NCBI RefSeq assembly: GCF_057098645.1 | Contig: NZ_CM169472.1 | DNA: 64,000 nt | Reading direction: 5' to 3' (one strand) | Translations under genes and position numbers: made by a program | Part shown: positions 30,399-32,643 of the stretch, piece after piece | How positions within the stretch are numbered: the first letter of the stretch is position 1 | Layout: the number at the start of each line of letters is the position of its first letter | The notes under the pieces: model-generated | The model's input: only the letters and a program-made list of their open reading frames with translations | What the model was told of the DNA's origin: nothing | The model's database searches: none

Positions 30399-30859
30399 CA
30401 TAAAGATACATGCTCATCCGGATCATTTCAACACCCAATCCCTGTGACCATTAGTGGTATGTGGAATTTCCTCAACGGGGAAGTCTGGCATTGTTAACAG
30501 CCATTGGCGACGCTCCCATAAACGCCTGGATGAGTGATTGATGATAGTTTCGCTGAGAGTATGGATTTTTCGAGAATGGAGGTTATCTCCACTTTACTGG
30601 CCGATGATTTATCGCAGTATGATTGATTACCTGACAGCGTGTATTCCTCTCCCACGGATATAATAATTACTTACAAAAAGGGAGAGGATGCATATTTTAA
30701 ATATCACTGAAGTGAACAGTTTATTGCCGTTATTAATAGAAATGGAGAAATAAATAGGCGTATTCTACTAGACTGGCCCCCTGAATCTCCAGACAACCAG
30801 TATCACTTAAATAAGTGATAGTCTTAATACTAGTTTTTAGACTAGTCATTGGAGAACAG

Positions 30860-31225
30860 ATGATTGATGTCTTAGGGCCGGAGAAACGCAGACGGCGTAC
30901 CACACAGGAAAAGATCGCAATTGTTCAGCAGAGCTTTGAACCGGGGATGACGGTCTCCCTCGTTGCCCGGCAACATGGTGTAGCAGCCAGCCAGTTATTT
31001 CTCTGGCGTAAGCAATACCAGGAAGGAAGTCTTACTGCTGTGGCCGCCGGAGAACAGGTTGTTCCTGCCTCTGAACTTGCTGCCGCCATGAAGCAGATTA
31101 AAGAACTCCAGCGCCTGCTCGGCAAGAAAACGATGGAAAATGAACTCCTCAAAGAAGCCGTTGAATATGGACGGGCAAAAAAGTGGATAGCGCACGCGCC
31201 CTTATTGCCCGGGGATGGGGAGTAA
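30860..31225 (+). CDS. insC: IS2 transposase OrfA (InsC, 121 aa)
   Basis: ORF track 30815..31225 trimmed to [41 protein letters not shown]... Confidence 0.9.
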
Positions 31226-32088
31226 GCTTAGTCAGCCGTTGTCTCCGGGTGTCGCGTGCGCAGTTGCACGTCATTCTCAGACGAACCGATGACTGGATGG
31301 ATGGCCGCCGCAGTCGTCACACTGATGATACGGATGTGCTTCTCCGTATACACCATGTTATCGGAGAGCTGCCCACGTATGGTTATCGTCGGGTATGGGC
31401 GCTGCTTCGCAGACAGGCAGAACTTGATGGTATGCCTGCGATCAATGCCAAACGTGTTTACCGGATCATGCGCCAGAATGCGCTGTTGCTTGAGCGAAAA
31501 CCTGCTGTACCGCCATCGAAACGGGCACATACAGGCAGAGTGGCCGTGAAAGAAAGCAATCAGCGATGGTGCTCTGACGGGTTCGAGTTCTGCTGTGATA
31601 ACGGAGAGAGACTGCGTGTCACGTTCGCGCTGGACTGCTGTGATCGTGAGGCACTGCACTGGGCGGTGACTACCGGCGGCTTCAACAGTGAAACAGTACA
31701 GGACGTCATGCTGGGAGCGGTGGAACGCCGCTTCGGCAACGATCTTCCGTCGTCTCCAGTGGAGTGGCTGACGGATAATGGTTCATGCTACCGGGCTAAT
31801 GAAACACGCCAGTTCGCCCGGATGTTGGGACTTGAACCGAAGAACACGGCGGTGCGGAGTCCGGAGAGTAACGGAATAGCAGAGAGCTTCGTGAAAACGA
31901 TAAAGCGTGACTACATCAGTATCATGCCCAAACCAGACGGGTTAACGGCAGCAAAGAACCTTGCAGAGGCGTTCGAGCATTATAACGAATGGCATCCGCA
32001 TAGTGCGCTGGGTTATCGCTCGCCACGGGAATATCTGCGGCAGCGGGCTTGTAATGGGTTAAGTGATAACAGATGTCTGGAAATATAG
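31183..32088 (+). CDS. insD: IS2 transposase OrfB (InsD, 301 aa, DDE integrase core)
   Basis: ORF track; [43 protein letters not shown]...; overlaps insC in the -1 frame. Confidence 0.9.
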
Positions 32089-32643
32089 GGGCAAATCCAT
32101 CTACAATTGCGACAAAAACAACGATATTAATCAGTTTATGACTGATTTGTTGTACTTTATTCTCTTTCATTGGTACTTCCTCGCTTTAAAAAAGAGCGCA
32201 CTTCGTAAGTGCCCTTATATAAATAACGAGTTTGGTCAACCAATTTTTTGACATGTATCACAAATTTGAATAGATGTATTACATCGGCTATCTTTTATTG
32301 CACCAACGTCATTGATATATGTCGCCTGAAGTCAGTTCCGGGAATGAGTCTGATCTCAAGACTGGCCCAGTCCTGGCGTTGATTGGCGCTGAGGAGCATA
32401 TCGCATCTCATCATAATGTCGTATCTCCTGGGGTGTTATACAAGATATCGTTGTTGGTAACCTGGGCGAGGAATTGAGCTCTATTAAACCGTCAACTATG
32501 CCGGATACATACTGGATTACACTGCAGGCACGCCTTATGAGAGAACGTGCCGCAGTGACGGGTTAATTATCTGAAAGAATTTGTGAGGCTGTATCGGTTA
32601 CTCATTGATTTGATAGTTTTACTCTCGGGAGAGTAATAGATAT

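Follow-up and report, generated by a model that had tools for sequence, protein, structure and literature searches.

YkgR of Escherichia coli K-12 is a protein of 33 residues that is documented as an SRP client contacted post-translationally (PMC7549839) and as a substrate of RseP, by which it is cleaved (PMC10470546). Beyond this, the three reports concerned (PMC7549839; PMC10470546; PMC12648545) describe it only as a small membrane protein related to stress and give no physiological function for it. IS2, an element of the IS3 family, is bounded by a left inverted repeat (IRL) of 42 bp and a right inverted repeat (IRR) of 41 bp, and forms a promoter, Pjunc, at its minicircle junction, for which a 17-bp spacer is mandatory and other spacings are non-functional (PMC3299598). 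An outward -35 hexamer from IRR also feeds fusion promoters at ampC, acrEF and neo (PMC9330008).

The locus described here brings the two together. In a window of 64,000 nucleotides, this being the whole stretch of DNA that was analysed, ykgR is split by a copy of IS2, and we consider it highly probable that this represents a plain insertional inactivation of ykgR, with no regulatory side effects, in an O145:H28-like E. coli. In the following sections we examine the anatomy of the insertion, its distribution among complete genomes, and the genes on either side of it.

Anatomy of the insertion

The complete IS2 element occupies positions 30769..32099 of the window on the plus strand and is 1331 bp long, with ends read directly from the sequence as TAGACTGG... 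at 30769 and ...GCAAATCCA at 32099, and with near-identical annotated copies in other genomes. An earlier note on this DNA, which had placed the element at 30768..32099, was right about the end but not about the start, so that its length of 1332 bp is one base too long. Across both junctions the plus strand reads ...GGCGTAT TCTAC / TAGACTGGCCCCCTGAATCTCCAGAC ... GGGGCAAATCCA / TCTAC AATTGCG..., and the two copies of TCTAC, which form a 5-bp target-site duplication (both strandless), abut the left end (30764..30768) and the right end (32100..32104) of the element. The identical repeats that the note had described around IS2 are hence real and lie directly outside both ends. They are also distinct from the IS2 termini, the opposite of which the note had named as refuting its reading: three IS2 or IS2-like copies from other genomes share the termini TAGACTGG...AAATCCA and have other flanks, namely CCAGC/CCAGC, TCAGT/TCAGT and, in one copy, flanks without a duplication. 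A direct target-site duplication of 5 bp is a feature of the IS2 family. Although a single 5-mer would agree by chance in 1 of 1024 cases, the duplication is beyond doubt because the 765-bp empty site obtained by reconstruction shows 100% identity with the uninterrupted site of E. coli O145 RM9872, in which ykgR is annotated.

The internal organization is likewise that of the IS2 family. An inverted-repeat search recovered imperfect terminal arms at 30778-30810 and 32059-32091, and with the repeat lengths described for IS2 (PMC3299598) IRL can be assigned to 30769..30810 (42 bp, plus strand) and IRR to 32059..32099 (41 bp, plus strand); both the length of the element and its imperfect 41/42-bp repeats are those of the family. 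The plus strand encodes orfA (30860..31225; 121 aa), whose translation scores 238.8 bits on the profile NF006928 "IS2 repressor TnpA" (cutoff 229), and the orfB frame (31183..32088; 301 aa), which scores 723.9 bits on NF006918 "IS2 transposase TnpB" (cutoff 597). The transposase additionally scores 279.5 bits against a cutoff of 160 on the NCBIfam profile NF033516 "IS3 family transposase". The two frames overlap in the -1 register at an A6G programmed frameshift window (31177..31183, plus strand), a motif described for IS2 (PMC3299598), and a simulated -1 shift at this window gives the fused OrfAB typical of the family, with 409 aa and no internal stop. To judge from its sequence, the element is an intact and ordinary copy of IS2, in which the features relevant to mobility all appear to be preserved, save for a single-base variant in IRL (see below).

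When positions 30769-32104, comprising IS2 and one copy of TCTAC, are deleted, a 33-codon minus-strand open reading frame is restored. Its product is identical to WP_000662258.1, which E. coli O145 RM9872 carries under the annotation "small membrane protein YkgR". On the NCBIfam equivalog NF041474 (cutoff 40) it reaches 78.1 bits and covers profile positions 1-33 of 33. Both the reconstitution of a 33-codon ykgR by excision, as the note had claimed, and the comparison with YkgR that it had proposed as a check are therefore borne out. In the window itself the gene is represented by two minus-strand pieces: a 5' fragment (32100..32170), with the start codon at 32170-32168, which holds codons 1-23 and two bases of codon 24, and a 3' fragment (30733..30768), which holds codons 24-33 and the stop codon and takes in the duplicated TCTAC. 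The insertion point lies after codon 23 and before the last base of codon 24, midway along the one hydrophobic helix of YkgR. The window contains no intact ykgR frame; of YkgR, what can still be read in frame from the start codon is residues 1-23 and no more. The split gene occupies the conserved position of ykgR, on the same strand as ykgM-ykgO and 363 bp upstream of it. These are the type B L31/L36 genes that the note had called rpmE2-rpmJ2, and beside which it had correctly located the disruption.

The mechanism that best accounts for this anatomy would be one copy-out/paste-in transposition, in which an intact IS2 of the IS3 family entered ykgR at codon 23/24 and the 5-bp target TCTAC was duplicated. 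As the insertion cuts the sole transmembrane helix of the 33-aa YkgR, the native protein is probably no longer made, and at most an 82-aa chimera, consisting of YkgR 1-23 and an IS2-antisense tail, might be produced under the promoter and ribosome-binding site of ykgR, both of which are intact. The corresponding 82-codon frame (31922..32170, minus strand) consists of YkgR residues 1-23 followed by 59 codons that run antisense through the right end of IS2. Since the start of ykgR and the region upstream of it are intact, translation from 32170 into the right end of IS2 is possible. The hydrophobic stretch is kept in the chimeric frame, with a similar mean hydropathy, and the frame scores 43.4 bits on NF041474, just over the cutoff of 40, so that an automatic pipeline could name the disrupted gene YkgR. 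This is a point of warning for annotators, as a truncated chimeric frame that passes the YkgR cutoff could lead to the disrupted gene being labelled intact. An exact look-up of the 82-aa protein returned no record, which is weak evidence given that a record needs the frame to have been called by a gene caller.

Distribution of the insertion and of related IS2 copies

The site without an insertion is widespread, being found uninterrupted in 5032 of 5426 complete E. coli genomes when counted at a coverage of at least 80% in one piece. To the right of the insertion, the flanking segment 32105-57000 matches a series of O145:H28 genomes with 100% identity, and at least 80% of these 25 kb is present in only 2115 of the 5426 genomes. 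On account of this identity the window most likely derives from the O145:H28 STEC lineage, and the host of the proposed transposition would accordingly look like an O145:H28 (STEC-lineage) E. coli.

To survey the occupied site, positions 30400-32500 were used as a query against the same 5426 genomes. Eleven genomes matched with at least 80% coverage, and the annotation of all 11 lists a YkgR CDS. In the three that were inspected (H31, H40 and H41) the IS2 or IS2-like element lies elsewhere, that is, in ykgL, beside ykgO, or in the gap between ykgR and the gene for an Old Yellow Enzyme-type (OYE) oxidoreductase, and ykgR is annotated as intact; the other eight, judged by span and annotation, are the same as H31. 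The exact insertion seen here occurs in 0 of the 5426 genomes, including the O145:H28 genomes with 100% identical flanks, and the exact 33-mer across its left junction was not found in a metagenome contig collection. Together the perfect repeats, the intact near-consensus element and the identical flanks of the relatives indicate that the insertion is probably a young, private and simple transposition, its recency following from its absence in the collections searched. This agrees with the recent simple transposition proposed in the earlier note. As the search covered complete genomes, a small O145:H28 sub-lineage could share the insertion.

The rarity of the junction has another conceivable explanation, namely that the IS2 copy was put here in error, through the collapse or misplacement of a repeat when the source sequence was assembled. 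Assemblies are classically prone to such errors at IS copies, and the junction is present in no other genome or metagenome contig of the collections searched. However, both junctions are base-perfect and carry a direct 5-bp duplication of the same length as that of other IS2 copies, which a misjoin would not create, and excision yields a sequence 100% identical to that of the relatives. We hence regard such an artefact as extremely improbable and favor a genuine transposition into ykgR.

A single copy 100% identical to this IS2, the yejO::IS2 of FDAARGOS_943, was recovered from the 5426 complete E. coli genomes, along with many copies annotated as "IS3-like element IS2 family transposase" that are 99.9% identical to it. 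The variant base in IRL lies at IS position 32 (window position 30800), where this copy has G and all three other copies compared have A. A search for a donor found the yejO::IS2 junction confined to FDAARGOS_943 and absent from O145 genomes, and a survey of the literature on IS2 in O145 returned nothing useful.

Several other insertions are seen in the ecpR-ykgL-ykgO-ykgM-ykgR neighborhood. Nine genomes carry a ykgL::IS2 with the target-site duplication CCAGC (one inspected, eight by matching span and annotation), strain 2-1 has an IS2-like element beside ykgO without a target-site duplication, and EC476 has an IS2-like element between ykgR and the OYE gene with the duplication TCAGT. Three elements at such other sites, IS2 or IS2-like with about 95.8% identity, fall within roughly 3 kb (L003, 1502-2832; L004, 1502-2832; L001, 3603-4933). 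Across genomes four different IS2 or IS2-like sites are thereby seen in the region, and there may be a regional target preference of IS2 around ykgR. The adjoining block at about 32600-39100, which encodes the OYE flavin oxidoreductase, an alpha/beta hydrolase, two LysR regulators and two aldo/keto reductases, is itself variable among E. coli; in genomes of the L003/L004 type just a 90-nt remnant of it is left between ykgR and fdeC.

The window contains a second insertion sequence at 55157-56466 (minus strand; 1310 bp), which has 25-nt terminal inverted repeats (TGAACCGCCCCGGG...) and looks like IS629. It encodes an IS3-family transposase and includes an ALIL frameshift pseudoknot (Rfam). The three bases on its two sides, AAC and CGC, show no target duplication, and position 56466 is precisely where the alignment of several O145 genomes breaks off. 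This suggests an IS-mediated rearrangement or deletion that might vary between O145:H28 strains. Elsewhere in the window there is an Rfam match of 193 bits to IS009 (RF02111; Rfam type "Gene") at 21205-21404 (+), and at 8641-8716 (+) a tRNA-Thr(CGT) gene that resembles the thrW found downstream of proBA, a locus which we take to be a classic integration site.

Neighboring genes and the regulatory question

Downstream of ykgR lie ykgM (30106..30369, minus strand), which encodes a type B ribosomal protein L31, and ykgO (29966..30106, minus strand), which encodes a type B ribosomal protein L36, both following the RefSeq annotation of RM9872. The former scores 122.7 bits on NF002462 (cutoff 86) and the latter 90.9 bits on NF002021 (cutoff 70), and the pair conforms to the type B L31/L36 paralogues of the ykgM-ykgO operon. 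We take this operon to be regulated by Zur. Just upstream of ykgM is a perfect palindrome, TGTTATAACA (30385..30394, strandless), which is presumably akin to the Zur operator and is regarded here as a candidate site; it is undisturbed and lies 375 bp from the left end of IS2. On the opposite side is the gene for the OYE-family NADH-dependent flavin oxidoreductase (32644..33786, minus strand), whose stop codon is 545 bp from the right end of IS2, the two being convergent. IS2 itself reads on the plus strand, opposite to ykgR, ykgM, ykgO and the OYE gene, each of which is encoded on the minus strand.

The region upstream of ykgR contains a terminator-like hairpin with a T-run (GCACTTACGAAGTGC then GCTCTTTTTT) at 32188-32212 (minus strand), 18 bases ahead of the start codon of ykgR and just before the ribosome-binding site, which could be either a terminator of the OYE transcript or an element of the ykgR 5'-UTR. 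A CRP-like half-palindrome, TGTGATACATGTCAAA, is also found upstream of ykgR, at 32247-32262. Rfam recognizes no RNA family in the 30-33 kb segment of the window.

The outward hexamer of IRR can be located from the geometry described for Pjunc (PMC3299598): we infer that it is TGGAAA at 32078-32083, as the 16 nt from this hexamer to the end of the element and the 1-bp junction spacer add up to 17. A promoter scan reported a promoter-like site over each junction, TGGAAA-18-TACAAT on the plus strand (32078-32107) at the right and TGGAGA-18-TAGAAT on the minus strand (30791-30762) at the left, of which the latter points toward ykgM-ykgO. These sites bear on a different view of the insertion, in which outward transcription from a hybrid promoter, with its -35 in IS2 and its -10 in the flank, would alter the expression of neighboring genes, either as a Zur-independent drive of ykgM-ykgO from IRL or as RNA from the IRR side that would be antisense to the ykgR stub and to the OYE gene. 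The view draws on the documented outward -35 of IRR (PMC9330008) and on Pjunc (PMC3299598), as well as on the fact that the promoter-like sites straddle both junctions. Against it, the scan found 4 sites versus 4.0 in shuffles, so there is no enrichment, and the spacers at both sites are 18 nt, spacings other than 17 being reported as non-functional for the Pjunc of IS2. For these two reasons we rejected the junction sites as evidence. Moreover, the documented -35 of IRR faces in the antisense direction with respect to all genes nearby. The only genes in the sense orientation relative to an end of IS2 are ykgM-ykgO on the IRL side, where ykgM is about 400 bp away and keeps its own untouched promoter region and the palindrome. 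Taken as a whole, a regulatory effect of either form appears very unlikely.

The earlier note had also suggested that IS2 might alter the expression of the OYE island. This is not supported: transcription leaving IRR converges on the minus-strand OYE gene, to which it would be antisense, such that IS2 cannot activate it, and we rejected activation of the island on this strand geometry.

The preferred reading therefore remains a plain loss of ykgR. In this mechanism ykgM-ykgO retains a promoter region of its own, and IS2 would not drive the OYE gene, whose strand is the wrong one for this; the expected outcome is hence that ykgR is simply lost, for which no phenotype is known. As the three reports on YkgR cited above give no physiological function for it, no phenotype can be predicted for its loss. 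We see only a slight chance that the insertion is more than a knockout, be it through zinc-independent read-through into ykgM-ykgO from the IRL-side TGGAGA-18-TAGAAT, through a stable new 82-aa membrane chimera, or in that the interval between ykgL and ykgR is a true hot spot for IS2. The insertion, a clean null allele of ykgR that arose naturally in an apparently pathogenic O145:H28 background, matters little, though ykgR::IS2 might serve to mark the strain or provide studies of YkgR with a natural knockout.

Comparison with known systems

The reconstructed protein is identical to the 33-aa YkgR of E. coli K-12, and its gene has the same place upstream of ykgM-ykgO, the difference being that here it is split after codon 23 by IS2. 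The element in turn resembles IS2 of the IS3 family from E. coli in its 1331 bp, its terminal inverted repeats, its orfA/orfB arrangement with the A6G -1 window and its 5-bp target duplication, and it differs by a single base in IRL, with G rather than A of the three compared copies at IS position 32. The IS2 and IS2-like insertions of other E. coli in the ecpR-ykgL-ykgO-ykgM-ykgR region share the element family and the chromosomal neighborhood with this one, but lie at other sites and leave ykgR intact in all cases.

With the IS2 fusion promoters, such as that at ampC (Jaurin and Normark 1983, as far as summarised in PMC9330008), the right junction shares an outward -35-like hexamer in IRR and a -10-like hexamer in the flank. 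In contrast to these, the site here is a predicted one, with a spacer of 18 nt instead of 17 and a direction antisense to the nearby genes. Thus, while the specific ykgR::IS2 allele is absent from the collections searched, the kind of event that it represents is already well known, being a textbook case of insertional inactivation.
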